Shown here: positions 33,605 to 63,232 of the stretch, in pieces
How positions within the stretch are numbered: the stretch's first letter is position 1
How the letters are laid out: each line of letters begins with the position of its first letter
Origin: Nemertoderma westbladi
Taxonomy: Eukaryota; Animalia; Xenacoelomorpha
DNA: 64,000 bases
Assembly (NCBI GenBank): GCA_032718475.1
Contig: JAUCBJ010008708.1
Location: 79,829-143,828, forward strand
Direction: 5' to 3'
Notes under the pieces: model-generated
Told to the model about the DNA's origin: nothing
The model's database searches: none
The model's input: the letters and a program-made list of their open reading frames with translations, nothing else
Translations under genes and position numbers: made by a program

Positions 33605-35873
33605 TGTAAGGGTCCAGTAGTATACCGCTTACCAGATCCTAGTAACGATGTATCTTACTATGAGACTCTAGTAATGTATACGGGCTTGTACAGTATCTGA
33701 CAACAAATCCCAGTCCAGGATATCTAAACAAACAGATATAGTACACAAACGACTACTGGCGAGGAACAGAGCCTTGTATCTATTCTATGTACGTGAGCGG
33801 GTCGAATGCCTACGTACTAGACAGAAGGATACCTGTCCTCTAACCGGTGAGGCAGATGTACAGTTACAGTAACAGACCAAACTCACGGGAAAACAATCCC
33901 CGCGCAGCGAATCCTAACTATCACTGACAGTCCTAAATACAGTAACTTGCCGCGGTGTGATTTATATGGTTTATATACGAGCTAGTGGGTTAACAGACCT
34001 AGCGTAACAACACTGACAGTCCTAAATCAGTCGAAAAGGGGTCGTACCTAAATGTAACAATAACTGATCCCCCTGTACGAAATCAGTCTAAAGGGTCAGG
34101 CCTAAATGTAACAATACCGTTGTCCAGACAAACAACAGTTTAATAACGAAAGTGAAATACTCCTTTTTTTGCCGCAACTAAATCAGATCCTAATTTTACA
34201 AATACAGATAATTTCCACCTAACGTAATGTATAGTACGCTATAGCTAGTAGAACTTTAAGGGCGATATGTTTTAGGGCGTGTGTGTGTGGGTGTGTTACA
34301 AATAAAACAATTTCGTGTAATTCCTTTTACTAGGTTTTAGTGATTTTCTGACTAAATGATACCGTGCGCTAGCTACTAAAATAAACTAGTCGCGTTTGTA
34401 GAACTTTATACTCACGAATGACGTCAAAGCTCTCTCCTTCCTATCCACAACCCAATGGGCAACCACAGTGTTAGTAACTACACCCGTGATCGGCACTAAT
34501 ACCAGATTCTGGTTGTAAGATAAGAATAGGGGTTAATCGCTACCGTACGTTAGCTGATCTGGTATACTAATTTAATTCTAGAACTTTGTTGCTGCGGTAG
34601 TTAGCAGCAATACCTATCAGTACGTGGCGAGGCGCGGTAGGATATTAATAAACCTCCCTAGGCCAAGCAGTGTGCCGGTAGCAGAAATGCTCCTTGCCTG
34701 ATCAAATAGCTAACTCCAGACAGGGGGGGGGGGGGGGGGGGTACTAATGTACGTTCTACAAAGCGAACCGGTACCAAACAGTCAGTGCTACGACTCACTA
34801 AATTATGGAACATATGCTGTCCGTACCTAATATGTACTCGCGTACTGACGAATGGCAATAGTTCGCACCTGTAGGAAGTACAGGTTAACCCAGGGATTCG
34901 TAGGACTTGACAAAGGGGGGGTGTCTGGATATAATTATTTGATCCTAAATTTGCGGCGTCCAGTACAGTGTCACGCTTACCCTGATCTATAGGTCTTACG
35001 GCGGGCAAGGGCGTCGAACAAAGTCTTACCTTCTCACAAAGCGGGCGCTGCATAGCAAGTGGAGTATTTCGAAGGGCAAAGGGGGTGCGCGGTCAATCCA
35101 ATGTGGGCGCTAGCGTGTTGTGGACATCTCTTCCCTGCGTTGCTTACGGCCTAACGATCTAGGCTGCCATCTCCCTGGTGTTCGGCTGTCCCGAAGTCGG
35201 ACCAAAAGAAAACATGTCAGGAAATTGCAGTATATTTACAGTTTTACAAAAGGATTTATCAAATAAAGTTTCAACAAGAAACCGAATTAACTAATTTTAC
35301 AAGAATAAACTATAAGGTGGAGAAAAGGGGTAACGAAGTATATATTGATAACCGAAGGCAAACCGGCCTTTTATACTAGAAATTGCACATGGAAACTAAA
35401 CAGAATTTTCCACAGCTTCACCATTGAGCAATGAAGTGCTTCGTGCTCTATGATTGGCCCAGCTCATCGTTCAACGCAGTCCGGCCCTTACACTAATCTG
35501 GGACATGGAATCCTAACAGAATTTTCCACTGCCTCACATTTGAGCAATAAGATAATTTATGCCCTATGATTGGCCTGGCTCATCATTCGCTACGCTGTAC
35601 GCTTCTCATTGGCCTACCAATTAGCACCACACGAAAATAAATGGCCCCAAAATACAAATTTCCCGACTGGGATTCGAACTCGTAACCTACGTAATGTAAC
35701 CAACGCCTTAACCATCTGACCACTACGCCACGAGAGTACCTAAGGGTTTTATGTGTACAAATATGAATAGGCATATTACATTACTGTAACTTAATCAAAA
35801 TACGTCGGATTTTCAAAAGTTTTTACGTTAAAGTTAAACTACAAATGCTATCTTATAGTGAAATAATTCATCA
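33605..35873 (-). repeat. 3' LTR of element C (2269 bp)
   Basis: Differs from the 5' LTR by a 6-nt poly-G length change and about 5 substitutions seen by eye. Confidence 0.95.
35661..35730 (-). promoter_or_regulatory. tRNA-like Pol III A/B-box module in U3 of the element C LTR (second copy at 48739-48808)
   Basis: TGGTCAGATGGTTAAGGCG ... GAGTTCGAATCC. The acceptor stem does not pair, so it is not a tRNA gene. Confidence 0.6.
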
Positions 35874-36390
35874 CCGCTCCATGAAAACAGTAAGTAAGAC
35901 TGTTTTCACCAATCAAAATATAAAATATCTACAAACTATTTCTAAATTTACTGGTAGGGCCTAAAATATAAAATATAATCACTATCTAATCATTGCATAC
36001 TTAATATTGCAGATACGGCGTAAATACAATCGATCGTACATACAAATACAAATTTACGAATTAACTTTAGTGCCTAAAATACAAAAAAAGGCTTTCGGTT
36101 ATCAAGGTAAGCAAATTAAACAAATCAGAACAAATAAATCAAACAAATCAAACAAATAAATCAAACTCTTTCGATAAATCTTTATATATTGTAAATATAC
36201 ATAATAAACCTTCACCAAATTAAATTAGTCCAAATATAATATAAACACAATGCGCTAATAACTTCCAATAGTGTCCTCCTGACGATCTGAAAAGTTCGTC
36301 CTACTGGTCTGGATGTCTTCTCCTGAGCATCAATTGCTAACGGTAGGCTCGCAAGCCTTCCTTTCCATCTCGCTCCTCCAAATCCAACAT

Positions 36391-36931
36391 TCATACATAA
36401 TATCCGAATATAAATATCCAATATAACATCCAAATATAATATCTGAATATAATATCCTTTCTTCTCGCTTTCCTATTCCTTGGCCGACCGGGCTCGTCCA
36501 CGTCCTCTATTGCGATTGGGTGGTGGTCGAGGTCGAACTGGGCTCGGACTTCGGCGTCGAGTTGTCGGTGGTTCCAAAACGCTAGGAAAGGGGACGACGG
36601 GAGATGAAACGACCCCCTTCTTGGTAACGCAGACTTTGGTGGTTTGGGCAACGCGCTAATATCGGCTCAGGGTTCTCGCAAACGTCGTTGGCGTCGCATA
36701 ACGCATCGTAGGTGTACAACGCTTTGAACTCCGCGCGTAACTCCTCCGCTGTTTTGTTATAAGCGTCCAATCGCTGTCGCGTGATGTTTGGATCCGCCTT
36801 GGATTTAGCAAGCTTGGCTGTACTCCTAGCCATACTCTCCACTCCAAACAGGTTAAAGTTTTGGCCCCATATCGGTTGAACGGCGCCTGGTGCTACTATT
36901 CCTGCGTGGATCCTTGATAATAGTGTTTCTA
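36391..36931 (-). pseudogene. Element C 3' accessory ORF, internally deleted and probably frameshifted
   Basis: Homologous to ORF 63233+ (NPEPILARCPNHQSLRYQEGG vs HPEPILTRCPAHQFLRYNEGG). Preceded by the acceptor CTAACCTCTGTTTGTGCTTCCTCTAG. Confidence 0.75.
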
Positions 36932-37623
36932 CTAGAGGAAGCACAAACAGAGGTTAGATGTGAGGAGACTTAGAGTTTGTCGGCTTTTGGCTCAACTCTG
37001 CTCTAAACCCCAACCCATTTTGCCTAATGACTTCGGGTTCGCGTGATTTCGCACTGGCCCCTAATCCAAAAAATTGTGCCGATAAAAAACGAATTCCGGG
37101 TAAACTAGCCGCGAGTCTAAAATACTCACCTTTTAATTTCCCAAACTACATTTCCCAAGAAAATAATGCAGTCGAGAATTAATTGGTCAAAATAATAGTA
37201 GACACGACTACGTAGAACAAGACCGATTTTCTTTTCCAGAAAAAATTTTATCGGTAGGCTCGCAAGCCTTCCATCCGCTCTTGTCCTCCCCAATTTTAAT
37301 TTTATCTAGCTGTATTCTAGAATTTGCTTTCACTGGAGAATCGTTTTTCTTAAATTTAAATCCAACTAAATGGATTTGTCTAATAATTTTTGAAAATTGT
37401 CTCACTTGTGGGTTCCAAGTGGAATTCCATTCCTACTGTACACACAATCCCGCTCCTATGTGATACATAAGGGTACTACCCTCCATGTTCACGTATAAAG
37501 ACAATGGAATTCCACCGCTGTCTCTATCTACAGTGAAGAGGATTACAAATGCACGTACAGTAATACAAATACAAATAACTAAAATACAGTAGGTCTATGT
37601 GGCGGCCAACAAAGGTCCCACAT

Positions 37624-38079
37624 CTATTTACTAATATTGGGTGGAGATTTGTAGTCTCCCGTCTCGTTTCTAGTCTCCTCAAGGAGTACGAGACGTTGTA
37701 CAGGCCTATCTACGGTACGTCCGTCGATAGTCCGTACAGTAACTGTTCTCACTATACCAGATGTAGGGTGCGTGGTCAAAATGACTCCAGTCAGCCAAAA
37801 CCGTATTTTCAGATTAGCTTCAGCCAATAAAACATGGTCACCACGTCTTAAACATCGGGTATTTAGATACCAGGAAGTTCTGGTTGAAATAGAGGGCAAA
37901 TAATTTTTCTGCCATATTTCCCAGAATTTATTTGCAAGCAATTGAGTGATTTTCCAAGCCTTGTTGCCGTATCCGTCACTATCAACGGGTACCGAAATGG
38001 GCAACAGTGTCGTCGGCGCCTGCATAAGCAGGTGCGCTGGTGTCAAGGCAAACTGTACGTCGTTATTGTCTGGGATCAT
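37624..38079 (-). pseudogene. Detached C-terminal part of the element C integrase
   Basis: ALTPAHLLMQ...FWEIWQKNYL...DRPVQRLVLLEETRNETGDY aligns with the end of ORF 54150..62477. Confidence 0.85.
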
Positions 38080-38085
38080 GGTGTT

Positions 38086-41000
38086 TCATGGTAATTCATG
38101 GTGTTGCGGTATGATGATAGGATACCTAAAGTCAAGTGCAAAGTCGATGTTTTGGAGTCTGGACTTGTGACAAAGTAAGCCCCGGTAAATAATCGAACTC
38201 CAACTCAAAATCGGTGAAGACTTAATCTGTTTACCTTGTTTGATCGCTGTGAACTCTCGTGCGAAATATCGCAATTGATAATGTCGAATGATATCAACTT
38301 CACAGTGTTCAATTTCCTTTAAGGTAAGTCTTCTAGGAAAGTCGCGTTTGCCTCTGGCATATTGTCTCAATCGTTTGAGCCATGCTAACTTGCGGCACGC
38401 GTCAGTCCATGATCTAGTTAGGTTCACTATCCTGTCAACGTAAGTGTTGGTGACGTCATCGGGTAAGGTGTAGTCGTAGTGTGGATACTTGTCTGGACTT
38501 GGTAGGCCCACGGGCCTTCCGGTAGGTTTGTCTGAGTCCCCAAGTACGTCAATCTCTACGGTCTTACCTTTACCGTCCGCACCTAATATGTCGACTGGCA
38601 GTAATGGTTTCAACTCTACAGTGTCAGTGTGTTCCTGTGAGCCTGTAAGCTTCCTAACCTTAGTCACCACTTTACCTGTAGGTAAGTCAAGTACCTTCTT
38701 CGAGCGGAGTGTAATCCCTGTGGCCACATCTCTGTCGTCCAAAGAAGTCAAATTCGGTAAGTCTCTAAATGTCCGCTCCAATGGGTCTTCTAATGGAGTG
38801 TCTAGTAGACAGTCTGGTGAAGCGTCTGGTGAACAGTCTGGTGAGACGTCTGGTGAGACATAGCGCGGAACATCCGGCGAAATGTCCTGTCGTCGGTCCC
38901 AAAGTCTGTCTAGCGTAACTTCTATCAGAAAGTCTGGTTCAAAGTCTGGTGAACAGTCGGTCGAGATGTCTGGTGAACAGTCTGGTGAGACGTCCGGTAG
39001 ACATTCTGTCGAGAGTTCCATCAAACAATCTGGCGAACAATCCGGAGAACAATCTGGTGTCTCTTCTGGTGAATAGTCTGGCGAGTAATCTGGTGAACAA
39101 TCCGGCGAAACGTCTGGTGAAATCTCCCGCGGAACATCCGGCGAAGGATTCGTACAAGCGTCTGGTCGAGTGTCTGGCGAGACGTCTGGCGTAATGTCAG
39201 GTCTGGCGTCCAGGTCATCAGATTTCGTCCGTCCTTTTTTCCTTTTGACCTTGGCGTTGGCTTTCCATTTAGACTTGACAACCTTGTCGAGTTTTATCTC
39301 GGCACCCTCTGGTATGGTGTTGGTTGTCGCGTCGAATAACGGTGGCCATTCGTCTGATGGTCGCTGTAGGAAATCGGGTCCTCTAAACCAAAAGGATTTA
39401 TTGTCCGGTTTACAAAAGTCAAGTGGTTGCATCCCCCGTGACGCGATGTCAGCTGGGTTCAGCTTCCCTGGACAGTGACGCCAATCTTGTTTGAGCGACC
39501 GGTCTAGTATTTCAGCCCGTCTGTTGGCTACGAAAGTCTTGAACTCGAATGTTTCGTTGTTTATGTACCAAAGTACCAACGTCGCATCCATCCAATATGT
39601 GACCTTCAAGTTAGCCTCCAGCTCGCGTTGAACTAGACTGACAATATCGGTAGATATCGTCCCGGCTTGCAGCTCCCCACGAGGTACAGTCATATACTTC
39701 AATGGCATTGTTCTAGCCCTTGAAGTAACGAGAGATACATCGTAGCTGTCCGATGTCACTTGTCGTCTAAGGTATAAGGTAACCCCCAATCCATCCTTGC
39801 TAGCGTCACTAAAGCTGTGAAGCTCTAAATCGGCAGGAAAGGTGGTTTGTAAAGGAAAGTATACCCTCGGTATGGTATAGTCTTGTAGGAACGTCAGTTG
39901 GGCTTCCCAGTCCCTCCATCGCTCAGCTAACTTTTCTGGGATGGGATCGTCCCATTCCAGTCCGGCTTGCCAAATGCTGCGGAGTATGATCCTAGCATGT
40001 AGGATCACTGGACTAATGAAACACAATGGGTCATACAATCGACTCATAGTCGATAAGCAAGTCCTCTTAGTGAGAGGTCTAGTCTGGTCGTTGGACCTTA
40101 CACGTACCCTAAAATTGTCGGTGTTAGGGTCCCAACTAAGTCCTAATACTTTGGTCGTCGGCAGTGGTTCTAGGTCTAAGTCTAAATCACCTCCGCTACG
40201 ATCCATCGGGTCAAATGAGTTCACCAGTTCGGGTTCGTTGGAAGCGAACTTCGTCAGGTGAAATCCGCCCTCAGCGAGACAATCCTGGAGTTGGTGTGCT
40301 ACGGTTGTAGCGCGCTCCAAGGTGTCACAACTCTTGAGGCCGTCATCCACGTAGAAATCTCGTTCCACGGTCCGAACTACTTCTGGGTCAAATTGGTCTC
40401 GTCTGTCTAATGCTGTCTGCTTCAAGGCGTACATGGTGCAGTTGGGGCTGTCCCTGGCTCCGAATACTCTTACCTGCATTTGGTAAGTTTCTGGCGGAAG
40501 TTGTAAGTTTCCGTCCGGATACCAAAGAAACCTCAAACTTTCCCTGTTCCGCTCCAAAGCCTTAACCTGGTGAAACATGGCCTCTACGTCACAGGTGAAA
40601 GCCACTTTGCGTTGTCTAAAACGCATTAGGACTCCCATGAGGTAATTATTCATATTCGGCCCGTCCATCAGTTCGCTATTCATAGACATCCCTTGGTAAA
40701 GCGCAGCGCAGTCGTTGACTACACGCACCTTGCCAGGTTTGTCCGGGTGTCGAACATAATGATGTGGCAGGTAATATGTCTGGTCTGTAGTTACCTCAGG
40801 ATTTAACATCCTAATGGCGTATCCCTTTTGGAGATACGTCTGAAGTTGTGCATTGTATTGCATATGGGCCGTCTCGTCTCGCAACAATCGCTGCCTTATT
40901 GATTTGAGTCGCCTCAAAGCAAGCGGGTAATTGTTAACGAGCTTAGGTTGTCCATTGCGCCACAACATACCAACCTCATAGTGGCCATTCGCGGTCTGGC

Positions 41001-44000
41001 GAATGGTATCTCTCATAATATTTAATGACCGTTTTTCCTGTTCTGACATAGCGGTCTCGTAACTACCGGGTTCTGCTGAGTCCTGTTCCAACCATTGTAT
41101 GGTCCGTTCAGTCAGCAGTCGGTCAAGCGCTGCTTGCACTGCGCCATGGTCCTCGTCCACGTCTTCGTCCGCTGCGGTGGCTAGTGTCAAGGTGTCTGGT
41201 AGGCTCGCAAGCCTTCCGGTGTCACTAGTCGGCGTCGAATTGTCGTGCGGCGGTTTGACAACCTCTTGATCTATCGGTAGGCTCGCAAGCCTTCCAAGAT
41301 CAACGACCGGTGTCGAAGCCTGGTGGGTGGGGTCAATGACCTTCGGATTTTTCGGTAGGCTCGCAAGCCTTCCAAAATCCTCGTTCATCGAGTCATCCAC
41401 GGCAACAACCCTCAGGTCTTCGGTAGTCAATACAACCTGGTCTACTGCAAGTAGTTGTAAGTCAGAGGTCCGTATGGTCGTGTCCAGATCGGTTACGTCA
41501 GTATCGGTGGCGTCTGCGTTAGTGACGCAAGTCTGTCGTAGTGCCGTCCGTACAATTGGACCACGGGAGTGTGAAGGAGAATTATCTATCGTGTTAGTCA
41601 ATAAACTACACGTGCTCAAAACGTCGTCCTCCTGGTCACTTACCTCTAGTGAACGTATTGGTGCTCTAGTATACCAACCTATGGGAGTTCTACATGCGTA
41701 GGGGTTGCCCGCTGTAATAACAGATGGGCGTGTCTCCCATACCTGATGTAAGTTAAACTGGTCTGTCCCAATTAACATCGCAATGGAACGATAATTGACA
41801 GGACATTCCGGTATTCCAAGGTGTCGAAAATACTTACGATCTTCCGGAGATTGCTCTGGCACAGGGCCGAGCAAGTTACTAAAGTCCTTCGTAGCTGCAA
41901 AGGTCAAATTTCTTACCGGAAGTAATGAGCGCTCCTCCTTGCTGTGTTCCGTTTTGGAAAGAAGAGTGTCTAAAGTTAGTTTTACTCTCGTCACAGGAAT
42001 CGCTCTCTTACCATGCATGCTGCTTACAGTATACTGAGCAGTCTTACCTTGACTCAAGTCCGTAACTACGTCGGCTACTTGTTCGTCGACATAGCTATGC
42101 GATGACGCAGAGTCTAAGATGGCGTATATACGCTTGCTCCCTCGGGTTCCGGTAATCTTTATAGGAATCACGCTAAACCCTTTCAATTGGTTCTGTGTGA
42201 GGAGCGTTATCGAAGGCTGTTCCTCACCTGCATGCACGTAGAAAGTGTCGTCTTCCTCCTCGTCCTCGTCCGATGATCCTGACTGATCCATACAGTCGGT
42301 ATAAAAGGTACGGATCTCGCGCGGCGCACGCTCCTTATAAAGCGCGTCGCATCTAGCCGCTTTATCGGGATGCTCTCGTCGAAAGCGTCTGGTCGGAGTA
42401 TGACTGGTTGTGTGAAGCAACGCGTCATGGTTACGTCCACACAGAGAACATGTATCATCGCTCGGGCAATCCTTCCGGACGTGTCCTGGCTTCATACATC
42501 TCCAACAGGAATCTAGAGATCGGATTTGGAGTCTCCTTTCCTCGATCCCTAACTCTTTAAAAGCGCGACATCCACGTAGTTTATGTCCGCTATGGTTTCT
42601 GCCGTTCCGCTCGCAGTATGAGCATCCCACAAAGTCCGCCGGCAACTGTTGTCGTGGCTGCGTGGTGCCGATAGGCGTCAGAACTTTAGAAGTCTCAGTA
42701 GGGGTGGCGTAAGTAACGGCTTTCGCGTTCGTCGGAAACGGTTTAGTCCGATTCGGCGCAGAAACAGTTATCCCTTCCGCCGCGATATGGTGATCGGTAT
42801 AGTTCGATCGAGTCTCGATCACGGCCTCCCGTGAAATAAGTTGATAGACATCGGTGAGTTTTAATAACCCTCCGGCCTCTTCGCGTTGGTACTCGATGCG
42901 TCGCCATTCTCGTCGTAGTCGATGATGAAGTCGACCGATTATTCGAATGAGAACCGTCGGTGCGTTAGCGTACTCGAGTTGTCCAATGGACCGTAAAGTC
43001 CCTATAGCGTTCTTTATTTCGTCCGCGAGTCGTAAAAGGTCGATCGGTCTCGAAATGTTGCCTCCTCTGCAGAGGTCTTCAATGATGGATTTAGCCATGG
43101 CGACATTACCGCCGTAAATCGAATACAAACGGTCGTACGCCAATTCAAAGGCATCGGGAACACCAATAAAGGTTTCCGCTAATCGTTTCGGCTCACCAGA
43201 CAGAACTTGGAGCAAGTAATTAAACTTCTCCGTCGAGGTGAAAGCACACTTAGCGATCTGGGACTCTACGTAGTCTACCAGTGTGCGCCAGTGTTTCGCG
43301 TTGCCAGAGAATTTCGGCAGTTGCTGTGCCGGTAATCCGTGTCTAGCCGCGAATTTCGCAATCTCGTTAACTAAGTCCAACTGTCCGCGTCCCTGTTCGG
43401 TGGCGTCGTCCAGTCGCTTCCTTCCGCGCGTTGTTCGTCGGTAGGAATTATTAACGGGATCTTCTTCTCGATGTGTCGGAGTCCGTCTAGTCTCCTGTTC
43501 TCTCCTCGGTGGTCGATGTTGTCTAGGTTGTTCCAACTCCACGCTGGTTCGTGATCGATCCGACGGTTGCGCTTCGAGTCGCTCTTCGAGTTGAGCTAGT
43601 CGGTCCGTTACAGGTCGCATTATTTCGGCGAGTCTGTTGGTGCTGATCGCTTCCGCAGGTTGCAACGTGGGTTTCTGTTGGGGTGTTTCTCGTGGAGGAT
43701 TATCAATATAGGGGTTCGTCGATCGTTCCTCCCGTTTGTAATCCGCTGCCGCTGCCGCTCCAGTACGGAATATTTCCCGTTCCGTCGACTCCGAGTCACT
43801 GGATGAATCGCTGTCGTCCGGATAAGGTGGTTGGCGGGTTCGCGTCCGGCGTATTATTCTTGGTCGAGTTCGTCGTGGTCTGGGATCTACGGCTCCTCGT
43901 TGTTCGGTAGGCTCGCAAGCCTTCCACGAAGTCGTAGGTCTCGTTAAACATTGGGTGAGAGGTCTAGTAAAAACATCTGAGTTAAGTTCTACTGTAGGTT

Positions 44001-45732
44001 TATAAATGACTGGGTTCGCGCAGCACGTCACAGGTTTAACTTGCAATGGTTTACTCACCTGTTTTACTGTCATAAACGCAGGTTCGTCTCTCTCCACAAG
44101 TAAACTACGACTTACTGTAGGTGGACTAGTTATGTTACCTGCTAAAATTGGCGATGAAGTCGCCCTAGGTTGCGGTATTTCCGTCACAACAAACCTGCTA
44201 CCTTGCGTCGGACGCACAGGCGTTATTTCCTTAGGTTTCGTAACGAAGACCGGTTTTATCGGAGTCGTGGGTTTGAGCATAGGAATAACTTGGGGAAAAC
44301 GTTTACAGTAATCCTCGACGAACTCCTCTCCTCGATCTATCGCTCCCACGCTTCCTTCCTCGATCCGCTTCTGTATTCCGCGATATCGAGCTTCCATACG
44401 ATCCAGGGCAGACAAGTCGTGTCCAGTTCGCGATCTTATAGATCTATCTCTCGCGTCGAGTTCGAGGTCCGCTTGCGCGTTCGCTGTCTCGCGCGATCTA
44501 CGATTCAATTCGAACTGTAGTTGCATCTCCCTTTCGCGTCGATCTGCGTCCTGTTGTTGTGCCGCTAATTCCGCTTCCTGTATAGCTAATCGAGCGTTTA
44601 TTTGCCGCGCCTCCAACTTGGCATGAGCGTCGGATGCTGCTTTCTTCCGTGCTAACTCGTCAGCTGCCGCCTGTCGTGCTAACTCGTCGGCTGCTGCCGC
44701 CGCGGCCGCTTCTCGCGCTAAGTCCTCCTCCAGTCTCCGCATCTCTGATGCTTCGAACTCAGCCTGTGCTTGAAGTTTCGCAAGTTTCGCTACGTCCTCT
44801 CTGCGCTGTTTTTCTCCTTCGATGGCGATCTGTGCCATCTGTAGTTGCGCTTCTTCCTCGGCGACTTGTTGTCGGCGTGCAACCTCCTGTTGTTGTCGAG
44901 TAATTCCAGACGCTGTTCTACTAACGTCGCCAACGTTGCCAACGTCGCTCCGTACGCTAACGAACGATCTATCCAGTGGTGGATGTTGGTAGGCTCGCGA
45001 GCCTTCCGTAGTGAGAACTTCCGTCGTCCCTCGCGGTTCGACTTCCGGTTCGTCGATCGGTACGCCGCATCTACGAAGAAAATTGGTCAGCGTTTCCAAC
45101 CTTCCGTCCAGGCAGTAGAGTTCTTCTTCCTCTTCTGGTTGTAACAACGCGTCCGAAACTGACTCACCTAGCAGTTGGTCGAACTGCTCCTGTTGAGCCA
45201 ATCTTATCACCGACTTAAACTGGATAAGGCTTTCTCTCGCACTTACCAATTTATCTACTATCTTTACCTGAGTAAAGTTGTCGCCACGCAACTCTGCAAG
45301 TTCGTGCAAACCTTTAAGTTTATCTACGGAGGCATGTACCCTACTTTCTATCCTTACCTGTAAGGTGTAGAACTCGTATCTCGACATCGGGGCGGTTAAC
45401 TCACGTAAAACGCGAAAACCTTCTCCGAGGTTCCGAGTAATCTGGGCCATGTGTCCTCCTATACTTCTAATAACGTTCTCCTGGCTTCCAGTCGAACTTA
45501 CCATGTCCGGTTCCCGCGATCTAGTCTGCGGGACGGTAAGGAAATCTTCGATCCTGCCGTCGCCACGCGTTGCGGCTTCCGGTATTTCCGTTCGGGGTAC
45601 CGGCGACGCAAGCGGTGTGACATCGGTGGAATCTCGGGTTCTCCTTCTCGGTTCGTCTACTGTCGATCTGTCCAGGTCGCACGAGTCATAGTCGGTAGAT
45701 GGGTATCTCGTCGAATGGGGTGTGTCACTCAT
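38086..45732 (-). CDS. gag-pol: Element C Gag-PR-RT-RNase H polyprotein (2548 aa), ending before the IN zinc finger
   Basis: LPKFSGNAKHW, three knuckles, ILDSAS, YYLPHH, FYVDDG, LHSFSDAS, NPADIASRG. SPDx repeats in the RH-IN linker. Confidence 0.95.
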   Translation of the reverse strand: MSDTPHSTRYPSTDYDSCDLDRSTVDEPRRRTRDSTDVTPLASPVPRTEIPEAATRGDGRIEDFLTVPQTRSREPDMVSSTGSQENVIRSIGGHMAQITRNLGEGFRVLRELTAPMSRYEFYTLQVRIESRVHASVDKLKGLHELAELRGDNFTQVKIVDKLVSARESLIQFKSVIRLAQQEQFDQLLGESVSDALLQPEEEEELYCLDGRLETLTNFLRRCGVPIDEPEVEPRGTTEVLTTEGSRAYQHPPLDRSFVSVRSDVGNVGDVSRTASGITRQQQEVARRQQVAEEEAQLQMAQIAIEGEKQRREDVAKLAKLQAQAEFEASEMRRLEEDLAREAAAAAAADELARQAAADELARKKAASDAHAKLEARQINARLAIQEAELAAQQQDADRREREMQLQFELNRRSRETANAQADLELDARDRSIRSRTGHDLSALDRMEARYRGIQKRIEEGSVGAIDRGEEFVEDYCKRFPQVIPMLKPTTPIKPVFVTKPKEITPVRPTQGSRFVVTEIPQPRATSSPILAGNITSPPTVSRSLLVERDEPAFMTVKQVSKPLQVKPVTCCANPVIYKPTVELNSDVFTRPLTQCLTRPTTSWKACEPTEQRGAVDPRPRRTRPRIIRRTRTRQPPYPDDSDSSSDSESTEREIFRTGAAAAADYKREERSTNPYIDNPPRETPQQKPTLQPAEAISTNRLAEIMRPVTDRLAQLEERLEAQPSDRSRTSVELEQPRQHRPPRREQETRRTPTHREEDPVNNSYRRTTRGRKRLDDATEQGRGQLDLVNEIAKFAARHGLPAQQLPKFSGNAKHWRTLVDYVESQIAKCAFTSTEKFNYLLQVLSGEPKRLAETFIGVPDAFELAYDRLYSIYGGNVAMAKSIIEDLCRGGNISRPIDLLRLADEIKNAIGTLRSIGQLEYANAPTVLIRIIGRLHHRLRREWRRIEYQREEAGGLLKLTDVYQLISREAVIETRSNYTDHHIAAEGITVSAPNRTKPFPTNAKAVTYATPTETSKVLTPIGTTQPRQQLPADFVGCSYCERNGRNHSGHKLRGCRAFKELGIEERRLQIRSLDSCWRCMKPGHVRKDCPSDDTCSLCGRNHDALLHTTSHTPTRRFRREHPDKAARCDALYKERAPREIRTFYTDCMDQSGSSDEDEEEDDTFYVHAGEEQPSITLLTQNQLKGFSVIPIKITGTRGSKRIYAILDSASSHSYVDEQVADVVTDLSQGKTAQYTVSSMHGKRAIPVTRVKLTLDTLLSKTEHSKEERSLLPVRNLTFAATKDFSNLLGPVPEQSPEDRKYFRHLGIPECPVNYRSIAMLIGTDQFNLHQVWETRPSVITAGNPYACRTPIGWYTRAPIRSLEVSDQEDDVLSTCSLLTNTIDNSPSHSRGPIVRTALRQTCVTNADATDTDVTDLDTTIRTSDLQLLAVDQVVLTTEDLRVVAVDDSMNEDFGRLASLPKNPKVIDPTHQASTPVVDLGRLASLPIDQEVVKPPHDNSTPTSDTGRLASLPDTLTLATAADEDVDEDHGAVQAALDRLLTERTIQWLEQDSAEPGSYETAMSEQEKRSLNIMRDTIRQTANGHYEVGMLWRNGQPKLVNNYPLALRRLKSIRQRLLRDETAHMQYNAQLQTYLQKGYAIRMLNPEVTTDQTYYLPHHYVRHPDKPGKVRVVNDCAALYQGMSMNSELMDGPNMNNYLMGVLMRFRQRKVAFTCDVEAMFHQVKALERNRESLRFLWYPDGNLQLPPETYQMQVRVFGARDSPNCTMYALKQTALDRRDQFDPEVVRTVERDFYVDDGLKSCDTLERATTVAHQLQDCLAEGGFHLTKFASNEPELVNSFDPMDRSGGDLDLDLEPLPTTKVLGLSWDPNTDNFRVRVRSNDQTRPLTKRTCLSTMSRLYDPLCFISPVILHARIILRSIWQAGLEWDDPIPEKLAERWRDWEAQLTFLQDYTIPRVYFPLQTTFPADLELHSFSDASKDGLGVTLYLRRQVTSDSYDVSLVTSRARTMPLKYMTVPRGELQAGTISTDIVSLVQRELEANLKVTYWMDATLVLWYINNETFEFKTFVANRRAEILDRSLKQDWRHCPGKLNPADIASRGMQPLDFCKPDNKSFWFRGPDFLQRPSDEWPPLFDATTNTIPEGAEIKLDKVVKSKWKANAKVKRKKGRTKSDDLDARPDITPDVSPDTRPDACTNPSPDVPREISPDVSPDCSPDYSPDYSPEETPDCSPDCSPDCLMELSTECLPDVSPDCSPDISTDCSPDFEPDFLIEVTLDRLWDRRQDISPDVPRYVSPDVSPDCSPDASPDCLLDTPLEDPLERTFRDLPNLTSLDDRDVATGITLRSKKVLDLPTGKVVTKVRKLTGSQEHTDTVELKPLLPVDILGADGKGKTVEIDVLGDSDKPTGRPVGLPSPDKYPHYDYTLPDDVTNTYVDRIVNLTRSWTDACRKLAWLKRLRQYARGKRDFPRRLTLKEIEHCEVDIIRHYQLRYFAREFTAIKQGKQIKSSPILSWSSIIYRGLLCHKSRLQNIDFALDFRYPIIIPQHHELP

Positions 45733-46688
45733 GTCTTATTATATACGTCGAGTACGGGTAATAAAATGTCAGTGTCTGAATGTTGAAGTGTCAAACTTAC
45801 CTTGGTATATATAGTACATATATACCCTAACCGGTACAAATAAATCAACAAGTCAGAATGTCGAAATGTCAAAATGTCGAAATGTACAAATGTCAAACTT
45901 ACCTTGATATATATATATATCATATATATACCCTAACCGGTACAAATAAAACTAACAAGGTATATAATAAAATAAGTAGTAATCTAGCCTACCGGCTAAA
46001 TTTGTACGAATAAGTGAGATAACGGTATACGTTAACAAAATATAGATCAACAAGTAAACAATAGGCCAAACAGCAACGTCTAACGGGAAAATAAGTACCA
46101 ACAACACTACTAATAGACAGTGAAACCCACAAATTTTGAGTACTACTGTGCTTTCTTAAGTTTGAACGACGCGAGTCGTAAAACTTACGTTCCTTTGATC
46201 TTCCAGTCGTACAAATTCCCAAATACAAACCGGACGTGGCTCTTTCCGTTTTTCGGCGGCGCGGACGAATTTATTGTCTCCCAAACTTTGCGAAAAGCGG
46301 TCTAATCCTCGAAGCGGTCCAGAAATGAGTCCTTGAGTCCTGAAAAGGTCGAAGGTGAGAGTTTTACTTCTACGCTTACGAAAAATCTTCCTAGGTACCG
46401 ATACAAATTGGTCTTTAAACCCTATGTACCTTTTCAAGTACCGAAAAGTAACACCGCACACACACGGCGTAAAACAAAGTGCTACAAACTAACTGTTAGC
46501 TAGTCAAAGATTAAATACGAAAGTACTAGCTACCCTAAAAGCCTACTGAAGCAGGGGACGTTCTAAATTACTAAATTTACTAACCTTAGTTTTTAAATAT
46601 CTCCTACTTTCAATAGCTAACAGATCTAAACTATACTATACGCTACGGCGGAAATACTATATACTAATTTATATAAAATACTTCCTAC

Positions 46689-48951
46689 TGTAAGGGTCCA
46701 GTAGTATACCGCTTACCAGATCCTAGTAACGATGTATCTTACTATGAGACTCTAGTAATGTATACGGGCTTGTACAGTATCTGACAACAAATCCCAGTCC
46801 AGGATATCTAAACAAACAGATATAGTACACAAACGACTACTGGCGAGGAACAGAGCCTTGTATCTATTCTATGTACGTGAGCGGGTCGAATGCCTACGTA
46901 CTAGACAGAAGGATACCTGTCCTCTAACCGGTGAGGCAGATGTACAGTTACAGTAACAGACCAAACTCACGGGAAAACAATCCCCGCGCAGCGAATCCTA
47001 ACTATCACTGACAGTCCTAAATACAGTAACTTGCCGCGGTGTGATTTATATGGTTTATATACGAGCTAGTGGGTTAACAGACCTAGCGTAACAACACTGA
47101 CAGTCCTAAATCAGTCGAAAAGGGGTCGTACCTAAATGTAACAATAACTGATCCCCCTGTACGAAATCAGTCTAAAGGGTCAGGCCTAAATGTAACAATA
47201 CCGTTGTCCAGACAAACAACAGTTTAATAACGAAAGTGAAATACTCCTTATTTTGCCGCAACTAAATCAGATCCTAATTTTACAAATACAGATAATTTCC
47301 ACCTAACGTAATGTATAGTACGCTATAGCTAGTAGAACTTTAAGGGCAATATGTTTTAGGGCGTGTGTGTGTGGGTGTGTTACAAATAAAACAATTTCGT
47401 GTAATTCCTTTTACTAGGTTTTAGTGATTTTCTGACTAAATGATACCGTGCGCTAGCTACTAAAATAAACTAGTCGCGTTTGTAGAACTTTATACTCACG
47501 AATGACGTCAAAGCTCTCTCCTTCCTATCCACAACCCAATGGGCAACCACAGTGTTAGTAACTACACCCGTGATCGGCACTAATACCAGATTCTGGTTGT
47601 AAGATAAGAATAGGGGTTAATCGCTACCGTACGTTAGCTGATCTGGTATACTAATTTAATTCTAGAACTTTGTTGCTGCGGTAGTTAGCAGCAATACCTA
47701 TCAGTACGTGGCGAGGCGCGGTAGGATATTAATAAACCTCCCTAGGCCAAGCAGTGTGCCGGTAGCAGAAATGCTCCTTGCCTGATCAAATAGCTAACTC
47801 CAGACAGGGGGGGGGGGGGTACTAATGTACGTTCTACAAAGCGAACCGGTACCAAACAGTCAGTGCTACGACTCACTAAATTATGGAACATATGCTGTCC
47901 GTACCTAATATGTACTCGCGTACTGACGAATGGCAATAGTTCGCACCTGTAGGAAGTACAGGTTAACCCAGGGATTCGTAGGACTTGACAAAGGGGGGGT
48001 GTCTGGATATAATTATTTGATCCTAAATTTGCGGCGTCCAGTACGGTGTCACGCTTACCCTGATCTATAGGTCTTACGGCGGGCAAGGGCGTCGAACAAA
48101 GTCTTACCTTCTCACAAAGCGGGCGCTGCATAGCAAGTGGAGTATTTCGAAGGGCAAAGGGGGTGCGCGGTCAATCCAATGTGGGCGCTAGCGTGTTGTG
48201 GACATCTCTTCCCTGCGTTGCTTACGGCCTAACGATCTAGGCTGCCATCTCCCTGGTGTTCGGCTGTCCCGAAGTCGGACCAAAAGAAAACATGTCAGGA
48301 AATTGCAGTATATTTACAGTTTTACAAAAGGATTTATCAAATAAAGTTTTAACAAGAAACCGAATTAACTAATTTTACAAGAATAAACTATAAGGTGGAG
48401 AAAAGGGGTAACGAAGTATATATTGATAACCGAAGGCAAACCGGCCTTTTATACTAGAAATTGCACATGGAAACTAAACAGAATTTTCCACAGCTTCACC
48501 ATTGAGCAATGAAGTGCTTCGTGCTCTATGATTGGCCCAGCTCATCGTTCAACGCAGTCCGGCCCTTACACTAATCTGGGACATGGAATCCTAACAGAAT
48601 TTTCCACTGCCTCACATTTGAGCAATAAGATAATTTATGCCCTATGATTGGCCTGGCTCATCATTCGCTACGCTGTACGCTTCTCATTGGCCTACCAATT
48701 AGCACCACACGAAAATAAATGGCCCCAAAATACAAATTTCCCGACTGGGATTCGAACTCGTAACCTACGTAATGTAACCAACGCCTTAACCATCTGACCA
48801 CTACGCCACGAGAGTACCTAAGGGTTTTATGTGTACAAATATGAATAGGCATATTACATTACTGTAACTTAATCAAAATACGTCGGATTTTCAAAAGTTT
48901 TTATGTTAAAGTTAAACTACAAATGCTATCTTATAGTGAAATAATTCATCA
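46689..48951 (-). repeat. 5' LTR of element C (2263 bp)
   Basis: TGATGAAT...CCCTTACA in element orientation. Duplicated CCAAT modules at 48465-48670 and TATAAAA at 48453-48447. Confidence 0.95.
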
Positions 48952-49470
48952 GATCAGTATACGATGGTTCGACAACATTTGTGTCTACTGTTGACGGTGA
49001 CACAGAACTATTTGATGTGACACACTTGCACCATTCTTGTTCATTATTGTGGTTGACTATGTTCTACGCATGTCCTTAGATCATCATAATGATGATGGGG
49101 TGATGATAACTCCACCTACTGGCTCCAGACGTCGAGGAAATCCTGCCAAGTACCTAACTGATCTAGACTTTGCTGATGACTTAGGAGTACTCTCAGAAAC
49201 ATTAGAGGGAGCCCAACGGCTCCTCAGTTCATTAGAACATGCTGCTTCTAGTGTTGGTCTTTTTATTAACTCCAGAAAGACCAAAATTTGGACAGTTAAC
49301 TTTGAAAGTCCTCAGCAATTCTCTGATCGGATGAGCATAAGCTCAAAGGATGGTATGCTTGAGCATGTGGACGACTTCTGTTACCTGGGATCATGGATCA
49401 GGAAGTCAGGTGAGGACCTTCGAATACGTAAGGGAAAGGCATGGGCAGCCTTGAATAGGCTTTCCAGATT
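48952..49470 (+). pseudogene. RTE-like LINE fragment 3 (RT core)
   Basis: Continues IAAIRS|VYDGS across the TSD. LFIIVVDY, LDFADDL, INSRKTK and FCYLGS are present; the QG motif is deleted. Confidence 0.85.
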
Positions 49471-49639
49471 GACAATGAACCCTACCTGGCTTCATTTGAA
49501 ATTCTTTACCGGGATGTAAAGGATGGACAAAAAAAACTAGATTCTGATCACTTCTCCTTGAAGCTGAAAAATGACGCCTACACTGGCGCCAATGGCTACA
49601 CTCAGCCGGCAATCAACAGATTTCTCACAAAATTACAAC

Positions 49640-53700: not shown

Positions 53701-54149
53701 TATTTAGGTTTAGCCGGCCATGGTTTTTTGAATCGCTCAAGTTAGAGAGAGAGTTAGAGAGAGTCGCAACCCGAAGATGTAGCCACGCGCTAGTGGATAC
53801 ATATAATATTTGAAACTAAAATTACGTTGATTAGAGCTATATATAAAATTAGAAATATTCGGGCGGCAAGTTTATTTTGAATATTTTGTATTAGATTCAA
53901 AGTTATTTTGTGCTATACCGGTATTTAATGCTATATAGTAGCTATATAATAATATTTTTGTTTAAATATTGTGTTAGTATTTGCTATAACTATATACCCC
54001 ATTAAATTCACAATATTGCATTGCGAATTTATTTGACATTTGGACCAACTGATTATTAGACAAATAATTTGACCGTGTTTCGGTTAAATTATAATTATAT
54101 CTCGAACCTTTGCGAGATATTTTGCCGGAAGGCAAACATTATTTAGACT

Positions 54150-57100
54150 ATGAGTGTCTCAGACAAAGAGGCACTAGAGGACAGCTACGAGACGGCGGCT
54201 GGACCGCCGACTGACGATAGCGTCAATATTACTGTTGACGACAATGCCGACTATGACGACGCAGCGAGCGATGCTGACGTAAGTGAACAGGAGGACGAGA
54301 CAGTGACTAGTGAGGAAGAACAACAACCTCAAGTAATAGTATTAGGATCCCCTACCGCTACTGTAAGGAAGGATTGTACAGCAACCCGACCAGAGGTGAG
54401 TGATAAGGAGGGTAGTGTAGCAGAAGCGAGAGCCCGGAGCCCGGTTTCCAGACCTGTGGGTATGGTAAGTGCCGTGGTCCCAGCGGCTGTAAGGAGTACC
54501 CGTAGTTCCCGAAATAATCCTTCAAGTCCACCGAGCGTAAGTCAGGTAAGTGATAGAGAGTTCGACACTGCGATGAAGAAGAAACTTCGCGCGCATGCCG
54601 GACATATAACCCGGACGGCGGACAAGGTAAGGAAAATGTTAGCTGACTCAGCGAACATCGGGAGGGTAGAGTTAGCAGAGATTAGAAGAGGATATAACTC
54701 AGCGTTATTCAAGCAGACGGAGGAGCTTGCAGTCCTAGCGAAGAAGGCAGTAGAGTCTCAGTCGAGCGACGTGGCGACGAGGATTTACGACAGGGTTTTA
54801 GCAGCCTTGTTGGAGCACCGCGAGTTATCGGAGCGATTCCGACGAGTTAGGACGGAGAACTGGCTGCTATGGGCATCACAAACGCAGGCGACTCAGGTGA
54901 GTGACGCAAAGTTAAGAGACTTAGTGGAGCAAGAAGAGATCCAAGATAAAGAGGAGCGCCGTTATCAAAGGGAAGTTACTAGCTGGTTGATGCAGAATGG
55001 AGTGGTGGTACCGGGTCAGGTGCTACCAACCACGGAGAACATCCAACAGAGGACGTTGACTCCACCTGATGACGCATCTAGAGACAGCGGCGATTCCCAG
55101 GTTAGTCACGCGCGAGGTAAGGTAATATGTGCTAGATCCCTTGTTTCGCACAACTCGGCGGAGGAGAGAAGACGCCGACTGGACGAACAGCAGGCGGAAG
55201 TTTTGCGTGCATCGGAAGCACGGAAGGAAGCCGAGCGGGAACGGGAACGAACACGTAAGTTAGACGCGAAGTTGCGCGAACTGGAAGATAAAGGTAAGCG
55301 TGAGCGAGCGGAACGCGAGCAGAAGGAACGCGAACTTCAACTTGAACGCGAACGCAAGGAACGCGAACTCGAACTTGAACGCGAGCAGAAGGAACGCGAA
55401 CTCCAGCTCGAACGCGAACAGAAGAAACGTGAACTCGAACTTGAACGCGAACGTAAGGAACGCGAACTCGAGATCGAAAAGGAGCGACAAGCGTTGTATG
55501 AAGAAAGGGCGCGTGTGGAAGAAGAGGGCGCAGCGAGACGAGCGAGGGAAGAAGAAGAACGTAAACTGGCGCAGTTGGAAAGTGCGAGATTAAGTTTAGA
55601 GAGCGAAGAACGGACTAGAAAGGCAAATGAAATCGCAGAGAAGGGGATGCGAATGATCGAAGAATGTGGGGCGAGTGTAGGGACTGAGTTGCGAGAACTG
55701 TTCGCACTGCAGAAGGCCGAACAGGAAGCGAGAACTCCGACCATACGCGAGTCGACGACGACCAGAATTCCTATACCCGGTCCAGCTATTACGAGTACAC
55801 GGATTGCTAAACCGTTTTCTACATATCGCACGCCAGTTGGTATTAGTGCTTCACCTATCGCGCAGGATCTACGTCATCGGAACACTGCACCACTATACAC
55901 CGAACGAGAGAATGAAGAGTTTAGAGAAACTCCGACGGGACGAGTACTTGGCGAACCGAACCCGCGGGTTTGGAATACGCGGACGGAGCGCCGACCCAGT
56001 TCGACGGAGAACTTCCGGGTTAAACCGGAAGAGGGATCATATGAGAGACAGCGGATTACTCAGATAGAGCCGACTATACAACAGAACCCTAGCCAGGAAT
56101 TTATTACGAGGGATGAGTTGAGTGCTAGTTTAGCGCAAGCTATATCGCCACACATCCAACCTATAACGGACATGCTTAGCAACCTACGGTTAAAGGAAGC
56201 AGCCCAGGTAAGAAGTAATTCTAATCCTAGCAGACCTGAGTTAGACAAAGTCCAGCCTAGTCAACGAGTACGCATATCGGAGGAAACTATACCACATAGA
56301 CCTCAGGTAAGGACGCCTGTCCCGAACATCTCTAATCCCAACTTCGAAAACTCAGCCGAGAAATTTATAGAGGAGGCTTGGATCAGGGCCTCGGCGCGCA
56401 AACCATCGCGAGCGTTAAGGACTGACACCGAGTCGAGCGATGAAGAGGAAGAAATGAGACGTCAGAAGTCCCGAAACTATAAGGAAAGAAGGACCGACGC
56501 GGAGCAGGTAAGTTGGAACCACCGGGAAAGGACCAGACTTAACAACCCTGCGGAACTAAACCATTTGTTAACCCGGAGCGACGCAACCCTTAGGGACATA
56601 GGTAAGTTTGCTGCTAGGCAAGGACTGCCGACGCAACAACCCCAGAAGTTTATGGGCAACCATAAGCACTGGAGGACCTTTAAAACCTATGTCGACGAGC
56701 AGCTAACCAACAGCACCTTTACTCCCAACGAGAAGTTCAACTATTTGCTTCAGATGCTCCATCGAGAACCTAGAGCCATTGCTGATAACTTCGTCGGCAA
56801 CGAGAGAGCATTTGAGTTAGCGATGAAGACACTTAGTGACATCTACGGGAATAAAACCAAGATGGCGCAGTCGATAGTAGAAGACTTGGGTAAGGGCGGA
56901 AGGATTACAACTCCGTTAGAGCTGTTGAACTTAGCGAACGCTATTTCGAACGCATTGGACATCTTGAGGACGGTGAATCTACCTCATCATGGTGATCACG
57001 CCGAAGTCTTAAAGAGCGTAATTAGACGTCTAAACATGCGTTACCGACAGAAATGGCGCAAATTAGAGAATAAGTTGGAGGGCCAAGGTAAAGTATTGAC

Positions 57101-62477: not shown

Positions 62478-63232
62478 TGTTGGACGCAACTCACTTCGTA
62501 TGCATTCCTCGTATGCAAATACAAGGAAATGCATAGGAGCGGGGTTGTGGTGATTTGCGTTGAGTTTTGTCTAGTGGGTATCAAAACAAAATTTTATTTT
62601 CAAAATTTTGGAAAATTAGAAAATTTTTAAAAATTAGAAGTGAACCCAAGACAATTCCAGACGCTGTGTATAGACGCGTTTTAGAATTCGTCTATAGATA
62701 AACAGTAATTTGAAAAGTCGTGAAGCCTGGAAAATAGCATTTAGAAACCATGGTGACGGCTATATTACGTAGGAGTGTAAATTGAGTTTAGCAACTTCCA
62801 CAGATTGGTGCCAACAGTGCAACTAAGGTGCTAAAGGTTAGTAGCACCAGAGGCGTGCACGGACCCCACTCAGTAGTTTGCAGGATGTGTGATGTTCGAT
62901 TATCAAACCTGTGGGTTTGGTATAGTCGAGTATTGTGGCTATGATCCTTTCTAACTACTGTAGTTTAGTACGAGTAATGGGAGTAGTTTGGGCATCAAAA
63001 AGTGAGTTGGTCACGGCCAGTTTATCTCCAAAGTTTTGCGCTATGCATGGGAATAGGTTAGAGGATAGTTAGTTAGGAAGAGACGGGATCTAGAGAGTCG
63101 AACCTGAACTGCTGGAAGGCGGGGGGGTTCGGGAGGTCTGTCCTTCGGCGACATCTAACTGATTTACCCACAGTGTAGTTGGTTACGTAACGGCACTTAT
63201 TGGGATATATATATGTATATACGCGTAACATA

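Follow-up and report, generated by a model that had tools for sequence, protein, structure and literature searches.

Element C, a 15.3-kb BEL/Pao LTR retrotransposon, carries eight copies of a 20-nt hairpin, and its sister, element D, carries six cognate hairpins with a different 8-bp stem and the same YGYG loop. The constraint on these hairpins is at the nucleic acid level and, as judged from the sequence, most likely at the RNA level. A tentative explanation, to which we give somewhat less than an even chance, is that Gag of each element docks through its zinc knuckles at these dispersed sites on its own RNA, selecting full-length RNA for packaging by avidity; the evidence base for this reading is two elements, one copy each. 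Both elements lie in the window, the whole 64,000-nt stretch of DNA that was analysed.

Elements C and D are 57% identical in RT-RNase H and form a long-branch clade within the BEL/Pao tree. Element C has the organization of the Belpaoviridae, with an LTR-flanked gag-pol, Pao-type domains in PR-RT-RH-IN order, and a 5-bp target-site duplication (TSD). Pfam matches are DUF1759, Peptidase_A17, and DUF5641, with an additional integrase zinc-binding domain in element D, and the element C gag-pol ORF stops early, such that ~242 aa of integrase found in D are missing. Gag of both elements has three zinc knuckles, a number named as a BEL/Pao feature (bioRxiv 10.64898/2026.03.22.711591); in element D they occupy 57369-57584. 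Inspection by eye past 46689 for an 18-nt tRNA-Arg/Gly site revealed no TGG-type primer-binding site. The main features are as follows:

46689..48951, minus strand: element C 5' LTR, 2.26 kb, 99.5% identical to the 3' LTR, without a hairpin copy
38086..45732, minus strand: element C gag-pol, a single ORF with DUF1759, three zinc knuckles, protease, RT, and Pao RNase H
42412..42624, minus strand: the three Gag zinc knuckles of element C, the candidate loop reader
37624..38085, minus strand: element C integrase C-terminal remnant (DUF5641)
33605..35873, minus strand: element C 3' LTR; the 5-bp TSD lies on either side of the element
54147..62477, plus strand: element D gag-pol ORF, BEL/Pao

The element-sense sequence GGAAGGCTTGCGAGCCTACC, with an A.A mismatch in the stem and a 4-nt loop, occurs exactly at six sites in element C (36342, 37253, 41198, 41276, 41354, and 43906), and there are two variants. 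That at 44988 has a single change, in the loop; that at 38501 has four changes, which include replacement of the closing U-A pair by C-G and two loop changes (UGCG to CGUG). The preliminary description had reported all eight sites, their geometry, and the closing-pair change, and each is present as described; when up to 3 mismatches are allowed, 100 shuffles give a mean of 0.01 matches and a maximum of 1. The coding copies are also read in three frames, as had been claimed, with GRLASLP three times and GRPVGLP once in one frame and WKACEPT and EGSRAYQ in the others, and two copies are outside gag-pol:

44988..45007, minus strand: loop CGCG, N-terminal gag, aa 243, frame 2
43906..43925, minus strand: loop UGCG, gag linker, aa 604, frame 1
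41354..41373, minus strand: first of the three 78-nt-spaced copies, protease-RT linker
41276..41295, minus strand: second of the three, protease-RT linker
41198..41217, minus strand: third of the three, protease-RT linker
38501..38520, minus strand: variant with closing pair C-G and loop CGUG, RNase H-integrase linker, aa 2406
37253..37272, minus strand: noncoding, in the interval from the pol end to the predicted splice acceptor
36342..36361, minus strand: noncoding, 3' of the accessory ORF, and retained if the message is spliced

The three copies spaced by exactly 78 nt had been taken as a tandem, leaving six independent sites. The spacing is exact and the motif is identical at 20/20 positions, but the flanks are alike at only 29/58, 22/58, and 18/58 positions (31-50%; background, 14.6 ± 3.4), and the triplet is absent from Tandem Repeats Finder output. 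The number of independent origins in element C is ~5 rather than six, because the two noncoding copies also have common flanks (27/58 identical).

The hairpin had been reported as not found in elements B and D. This is correct for element B, where no YGYG-loop hairpin is present and a single look-alike lies at 9191 (loop CGAG), but not for element D, whose six 20-nt hairpins are recognizable by structure. They span all three frames and occupy linker regions matching those of element C:

54447..54466, plus strand: loop UGUG, 6/8 pairs, N-terminal gag; weakly predicted in context
55955..55974, plus strand: loop CGCG, 7/8 pairs, gag linker; fold absent from 40- and 150-nt context predictions
57287..57306, plus strand: loop CGCG, closing pair U-A, directly before the first zinc knuckle
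58576..58595, plus strand: loop CGUG, protease-RT linker
60813..60832, plus strand: loop UGCG, 8/8 Watson-Crick pairs, RNase H-integrase linker
62902..62921, plus strand: loop UGUG, noncoding, in the interval from the pol end to the predicted acceptor

The 14 hairpins of the two elements share a strict loop. Positions 2 and 4 are G in every copy (28/28 positions), positions 1 and 3 are C (15) or U (13) and never A or G, the most frequent loop sequence is UGCG, and the pair under the loop is C-G in 14/14 copies. The closing pair alternates between U-A and C-G in element C and again in element D, and a purine-purine mismatch is present in all eight element C copies (A.A) and in two of six element D copies (G.A). 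Across the nine distinct copies, 90% of cells pair and five of eight pairs change on both sides, a covariation score reached by 0/500 shuffles, although sequence relatedness inflates this figure. Inside element D alone, three double-changed pairs are reached by 16/500 shuffles and the percentage paired by 52/500, and covariation there is only suggestive. Thermodynamic prediction is less distinctive: five of seven tested 40-nt windows are no more stable than shuffles (z of -1.0 to -1.5), and for two element D copies the predicted fold in context is weak or absent.

All 14 copies have the orientation of their element, and the four G.U wobbles, all in element D stems, pair on the element sense strand only and are mismatches on the opposite strand, which favors RNA over a DNA palindrome. 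Protein-level constraint is ruled out by the use of three frames in both elements together with the noncoding copies, as the preliminary description had concluded from element C. Simple CpG decay of a palindrome is rejected, as it would yield CA too and there is no CpG depletion (observed/expected, 1.22 and 1.03). The RNA-level reading is stronger than was first known because element D carries a structurally equivalent set on a different stem; this set, the invariant loop Gs, and the sense-only wobbles support the earlier proposal of a dispersed protein-binding RNA hairpin, whereas its further part, a marker of unspliced RNA, is not supported by hairpin position (see below).

Apart from the 78-nt triplet, hairpins are spaced at 0.9 to 2.7 kb in linkers and noncoding gaps. 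Ten of the 11 coding copies fall outside the conserved blocks that C and D share; the 11th is in a variable linker preceding the knuckles. No copy is present in the leader and LTR of element C or upstream of D gag, and no C-type copy is found outside element C in the window. Elements A and B and a gypsy element in the window lack the array, and only background is seen in 555 kb from 80 BEL loci that are more distant. Among the elements examined the array is restricted to the C/D clade, in which multiple stem-loops (eight in C, six in D) with a retained structure and common loop are distributed along the genome. Rfam covariance models across 33000-49500 yield one chance match (E of 3.2) and none at the hairpins. 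The motif peptides are absent among the 120 near-length homologues listed (best, 46%) and from shorter proteins found with a Gag-protease query, and the 120 shorter RT homologues listed share at most 50% identity, none belonging to the C/D clade by identity. Viral and prokaryotic collections contain no protein relatives, and pattern scans of them returned 4 and 2 single-copy stretches, matching chance expectation. A motif-agnostic hairpin-family scan was too loose, with chance sets of 3 to 4 members at many loci, and is excluded from the evidence. A histone stem-loop, p53 site, and Helitron end were dismissed on sequence grounds against consensus patterns, as were a bacterial REP (D lacks GTAG) and a YNMG-only loop (UGUG and CGUG misfit).

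If the hairpins fold in sense RNA in vivo, Gag NC is a candidate reader by analogy with retroviral NC, for which a GNG/UGCG loop rule is known. GNG in RNA apical loops provides high-affinity sites for HIV-1 NC (PMC3089453), and RSV NC is described as binding a UGCG tetraloop through its G residues, with a UGCG-to-GAGA change lowering NC affinity 10,000-fold (PMC5035970). Each of the 14 copies is a short stem capped by a GNG tetraloop, in which positions 2 and 4 are G. Repeated sites would let avidity pick full-length RNA for packaging, differing stems could let each family favor its own RNA, and copies may arise through local duplication or template switching and then be retained by selection; the motif survives in old duplications while the flanks have decayed. 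Against Gag docking, the absence of hairpins from leader and LTR is unlike the mapped signals of Ty1 and Ty3, which are placed in leader/LTR with most internal sequence dispensable (PMC4974528), and reported assays with full-length Gag found that neither the UGCG loop of RSV nor the GGAG loop of HIV was required for specificity or packaging. Such an array is missing from elements A and B, whose Gags have three knuckles, and likewise from the 80 other BEL loci, and loop reading by NC alone leaves the fixed family-specific stem with its A.A mismatch unexplained.

The main rival to Gag docking, which we regard as rather unlikely, is that the hairpins are response elements for an accessory protein peculiar to the clade. 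This protein, translated from a message predicted to be spliced, would coat unspliced RNA for export or stability in a Rev- or CERV-like manner. The relevant features are as follows:

45795..45905, minus strand: two predicted splice donors (AG/GTAAGT at 45902 and 45800), element C leader
36929..36960, minus strand: predicted splice acceptor of element C (CTAAC branch point, pyrimidine tract, AG)
36582..36953, minus strand: element C accessory ORF, homologous to that of D and ~85 aa shorter internally
63233..64000, plus strand: element D accessory ORF with a Cx2C..Cx2H motif; it leaves the window at its end

The hairpins co-occur in C and D with the homologous accessory ORF behind a conserved predicted acceptor signal (CATCTAAC..YAG; D copy at 63152-63173), and element B, which lacks the array, has an accessory ORF unrelated to theirs. 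An Arg/Ser/Pro-rich stretch follows the ORF in element C, in a different frame. Family-specific stems with purine-purine mismatches would suit a co-evolving stem reader, for which Rev-RRE is an analogy, although a purine mismatch is missing from four of the six D stems. The LTR-retrotransposon protein CERV comes from a spliced message, and its Cys loop is needed for gRNA export (PMC10309623). RNA binding by the accessory protein is unsupported because it has no homologue in database searches (Atlas scores of at most 0.77; one repeat-protein match was judged spurious) and no usable model (single-sequence pLDDT of 36).

This reading also depends on predicted splicing. The preliminary count of seven of eight element C hairpins in the region removed by splicing is correct for the predicted intron (donor 45800/45902 to acceptor ~36930), but is not evidence for enrichment, since this intron spans 82% of the internal region and 6.6 of 8 are expected there. 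In element D, 6/6 copies are upstream of the acceptor, as the accessory reading would predict. The 36342 copy is 3' of the acceptor, within the 3' UTR of the predicted spliced message, so that the hairpins of C are not confined to the intron, and family-member contigs join one more hairpin-bearing segment there; some family C members probably have two copies in the spliced 3' UTR. Comparison of family C copies gives 1560 differences, of which 40 are listed. The suggestion that the hairpins mark unspliced genomic RNA is thus not supported by their position.

Recognition of the motif as an imperfect double-stranded DNA palindrome by a dimeric element or host protein, for example for antisilencing as with VANC on VANDAL, is improbable. 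The motifs are dyad symmetric about a 4-bp spacer and specific to each family in sequence, both strands have equal folding energies for most element C copies, and the motifs have partially spread through tandem duplication, as described for the family-specific VANC targets (PMC5735166). However, the single orientation, spacer Gs invariant on one strand, and sense-strand G.U pairs all argue against this, symmetric double changes are not needed by a dimeric DNA reader, and the LTR promoter region has no copy.

Localization, stabilization, or translation of the RNA through a host RNA-binding protein, such as in germ line transport or decay protection, seems similarly improbable. Constancy of the loop and underlying C-G pair across two diverged elements is as expected for an unchanging reader, and stem-loops that localize Drosophila retrotransposons are a precedent, but A, B, and the gypsy element, the other LTR elements of the window, lack the array, there is no Rfam match, and the family-specific homogeneity of the stems is left unexplained. 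Least probable is that the hairpin promotes template switching by RT and self-copies neutrally into tolerant linkers: insertion-tolerant positions, six identical copies, some with common flanks, and contig joints pointing to copy gain or loss among family members fit this, but a 20/20 motif between flanks that are 31-50% identical, the paired changes, one loop rule on unrelated stems, and mere background in 80 other BEL loci do not.

A broader and more doubtful proposal than Gag docking itself is that the hairpins form an RNA barcode in a giant BEL clade, with a shared YGYG loop, a stem rewritten per family and replanted in flexible linkers, and a co-evolving reader (Gag knuckles or the zinc finger accessory protein), by which families would recognize, export, and package only their own genomes. 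Selection of genomic RNA by LTR retrotransposons is poorly defined: Ty1/Ty3 packaging sequences are described as ill-defined, with possible contributions from scattered sites (PMC4974528), and BEL/Pao replication is poorly understood (PMC8742986). In C and D each candidate site is a separate 20-mer, the differing C and D stems under a common loop provide a swap control made by nature, and there are two candidate readers, both small, so that the question can be tested directly in vitro. If family specific, the hairpin/reader pairs would be a natural orthogonal RNA-protein tag set.

Elements C and D resemble the Belpaoviridae (PMC8742986) in their LTRs, single PR-RT-RH-IN gag-pol, DUF1759, Peptidase_A17, DUF5641, and three knuckles, but differ by a non-env accessory ORF and their long-branch clade, and element C (15.3 kb, LTRs of 2.26 kb) exceeds the profile ranges (4.2-10 kb, LTRs of 0.2-1.2 kb); internal RNA signals are not listed in that profile. 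VANC/VANDAL (PMC5735166) similarly has short, family-specific, tandem-multiplied motifs beside an element-encoded accessory protein, although these are noncoding DNA motifs of DNA transposons, whereas the C/D hairpins are strand biased and mostly in coding linkers. Rev/RRE and Cer1 CERV share an accessory protein with a Cys motif, a predicted spliced message, and an intron-containing genomic RNA needing export, but the RRE is one large structure rather than many small hairpins, the section on CERV names no RNA target (PMC10309623), and Cer1 is of another lineage, with no homology found to the C/D protein. RSV mu-Psi SL-C (UGCG) and HIV-1 SL3 (GGAG) are likewise short stems with tetraloop G at positions 2 and 4 in genomes coding for CCHC-type knuckles, but they are single hairpins in a folded 5' leader, whereas C and D have 6 to 8 near-identical, free-standing hairpins with family-specific stems across 8.5 kb, in coding as well as 3' sequence, and none in the leader. 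Single-stranded RNA virus packaging signals (enterovirus E, PMC7793301; review, PMC6281560) are also many small sites along the genome, within coding sequence, with the capsid polyprotein as proposed reader; those of enterovirus E are described as degenerate and SELEX-found, whereas the C/D hairpins, as candidate sites in an LTR host, are few, near-exact, and visible in the sequence.

Element C, a minus-strand BEL/Pao LTR retrotransposon, carries a 20-nt hairpin at all eight sites reported in the preliminary description; six are exact copies of element-sense GGAAGGCTTGCGAGCCTACC (36342, 37253, 41198, 41276, 41354, and 43906), one is a loop variant with a single change (44988), and the copy at 38501 has four changes, which replace the closing pair U-A with C-G and the loop UGCG with CGUG. 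Chance matches at ≤3 mismatches average 0.01 (maximum 1) in 100 dinucleotide shuffles of the whole window, which holds no further dispersed 12-mer family of this kind. Every copy has the same fold, a 4-nt loop closed by five pairs, below which come an A.A mismatch and two outer pairs. Calculated with 40-nt flanks, the sense-strand inner-stem probability is 0.97-1.0 for six copies, while the two variants reach 0.72 and 0.56. The coding copies do occupy all three reading frames, and two copies are non-coding. Bases at -1/+1 of the stem are U/G (4), C/A (3), or A/G (1), with Watson-Crick pairing in 0/8; the helix behaves as though limited to 8 bp.

Element D, the plus-strand sister of C that runs off the window end, had been thought to lack the motif, but a search for dispersed near-repeats finds six structurally cognate hairpins (54447, 55955, 57287, 58576, 60813, and 62902), each 20 nt long with an 8-bp stem unrelated to that of C and a YGYG loop (two UGUG, two CGCG, one CGUG, and one UGCG). 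The case for an array is thus stronger than first claimed. A rule of a YGYG loop with seven of eight pairs finds eight hairpins in C and four in D (shuffle means 0.07 and 0.12, maximum 1, n=200), and a looser rule, formulated only after the copies were known, finds eight and six (means 0.07 and 0.06, maximum 2, n=300). The D copies also span all three frames plus one non-coding site, and the elements share placements in N-terminal gag, the gag linker, the protease-RT and RNase H-integrase linkers (C 1504 aligning with D 1477, and C 2405 with D 2223), and the gap that follows pol; successive copies are 1.3-2.2 kb apart in D and, a closely spaced triplet excepted, 0.9-2.7 kb apart in C. The sense-strand rule gives no match in element A, in a gypsy element, or in element B, for which absence had been correctly reported, and the best 80 of 327 confirmed metagenomic BEL loci (incomplete and in part redundant sequences at 38-46% identity, together 554,655 bp) give three sense and three antisense matches, no locus having a second match on the same strand; among the elements examined, the array is therefore a trait of the C/D clade. 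Element B has a single D-like hairpin with a CGAG loop at 9191. The features surrounding the arrays are:

33605-35873 and 46689-48951, minus strand: LTRs of element C, 99.5% identical to each other
38777-39192, minus strand: 12-bp tandem array coding for an SPD-rich repeat, in the RNase H/integrase gap of C; not present in D
32552-33700 and 48952-49480, plus strand: non-LTR retrotransposon RT gene (RVT_1), split by element C
5599-17637, plus strand: element B, BEL/Pao, nested in BEL element A; LTRs 1.25 kb, RT-RNase H missing
197-1174 and 24256-25590: ORFs with 45-bp and 105-bp coding repeats; no Pfam match

Element C is 15.3 kb long with 2.26-kb LTRs, exceeding the ICTV size and LTR ranges for Belpaoviridae (PMC8742986), and is flanked by a 5-bp target-site duplication. 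Its single gag-pol ORF codes for DUF1759, three zinc knuckles, and Peptidase_A17, with a DUF5641 remnant, and is missing about 242 aa of integrase that D has; family contigs show loose ends at this gap (38078-38091). The missing integrase, the near-identical LTRs, and the loose ends together identify C as a young non-autonomous deletion copy. The family is very high-copy and variable in contigs of four runs. C and D share 57% identity over RT-RNase H and form one long-branch clade (SH-aLRT 100) in a quick tree whose 43 rows are the first 40 of 120 listed matches together with C, D, and A. Named homologues of C come from marine invertebrates and fish, with identities among the matches listed of ≤46% for near-length and ≤50% for shorter proteins. 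Each C LTR has a tRNA-like stretch (48740-48815 and 35660-35735, minus strand) with Pol III A-/B-box-like motifs by eye, in which ARAGORN calls no tRNA, followed by two 116-bp-spaced repeats. A canonical TGG primer-binding site cannot be seen downstream of the 5' LTR (46660-46695, minus strand), and family contigs carry alternative sequence at this junction.

The best reading of the array, which we hold tentatively, is that the hairpins would be docking sites for the Gag zinc knuckles. GNG RNA loops are high-affinity sites for nucleocapsid (NC), the zinc-knuckle part of Gag (PMC3089453), and RSV NC binds a UGCG tetraloop through the loop G residues (PMC5035970). The reading is tempered because a loop change left the specificity of full-length RSV Gag undiminished (PMC5035970), HIV GGAG loop substitutions left packaging unimpaired (PMC7599994; PMC12789967), Ty1/Ty3 signals are located at the ends (PMC4974528), and BEL capsids that lack NC show no preference for sequence in packaging (bioRxiv 10.64898/2026.03.22.711591).

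The main alternative, on balance unlikely, is that the hairpins are read by the protein of an accessory ORF 3' of pol, in a Rev- or CERV-like manner (PMC10309623).

36582-36953, minus strand: accessory ORF of C
63233-64000, plus strand: accessory ORF of D
14848-15261 and 15557-16312 (the latter with a basic tail), plus strand: accessory ORFs of element B

The clade-specific protein of C and D co-occurs with the array and has a Cys/His motif (Cx2C..Cx2H), although it has no model, and 1.84 billion representatives include no homologue of it. The C ORF is shorter internally, and a loose end appears at 36675 in family contigs. Splicing from the leader to the accessory ORF is plausible, with donor-like sites in C at 45902 and 45800, a predicted branch-point/acceptor signal at 36960-36929, and the same CATCTAAC..YAG signal in D at 63152, ahead of the homologous ORF. 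Seven of the eight C copies do lie in the predicted intron, but this count, earlier offered as an argument, is uninformative since the intron is 82% of the element interior; at least one copy would remain in the spliced message. Unspliced RNA would have several-fold more copies, in keeping with selection by avidity under both models, and taken together these two models of an element protein acting on RNA are probable.

The motif is probably a hairpin in the sense RNA. Its orientation is that of its own element in 14/14 copies, and the loop has G at positions 2 and 4 in all 28 cases and C (15) or U (13) at positions 1 and 3. Decay of a CGCG palindrome was rejected as the loop origin, since CA would also be expected and neither C nor D is CpG depleted. 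Four G.U pairs in D stems, perhaps only two independent events, are paired on the sense strand and mismatched on the opposite strand, and in each element the closing pair is U-A in some copies and C-G in others. Covariation, at first suggested by one compensatory change, is seen across C and D jointly (nine distinct copies, 90% of cells paired, five of eight pairs changed on both sides, 0/500 shuffles reaching the score), a statistic mostly reflecting the C-versus-D difference, but is no more than suggestive for D alone (16/500 and 52/500 shuffles). C copies fold equally well on both strands, shuffled sequence folds just as well as five of seven tested 40-nt windows, and the fold of two D copies is weakly predicted or unpredicted in context. 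It is improbable that the motif is a VANC-like DNA site (PMC5735166), and equally improbable that a host factor reads the hairpins.

Three C copies lie 78 nt apart, with flanks identical at 29/58, 22/58, and 18/58 positions (background 14.6 +/- 3.4) and the motif identical at 20/20; the two non-coding C copies have flanks identical at 27/58. The triplet, first described as a 78-bp tandem, is the product of an old duplication, and the independent origins of the C copies number about five rather than six. Because the motif is intact beside decayed flanks, it was evidently preserved or re-homogenised during flank decay. Ten of the 11 coding copies lie outside blocks conserved between C and D, which make up 46% and 60% of the proteins, and among the 40 of 1560 family differences listed, none is in a motif versus 0.6 expected. 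Contigs join 36443 to 37250 in runs of three studies, two of which also join 37280 to 36470/36473. These joints point to an additional segment with a hairpin at 36443-36473, within the accessory 3' UTR, in other members of the family, and hence to copy turnover, although contig joints at repeats may be artefacts; that the hairpins are neutral self-copying sequence is very improbable.

No Rfam family matches the hairpins, and the open-access literature searched describes no BEL/Pao hairpin arrays; PMC13524379 is about env genes. Sequence comparison of two element copies argues that the array is a real, selected, clade-specific feature. It falls outside the retroviral Psi hairpins because it is not in the leader, and outside the RRE type because it is not intron-confined. 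In its working mode, which we infer, it is likened to dispersed packaging signals (PMC7793301; PMC6281560) made of NC-type tetraloops.
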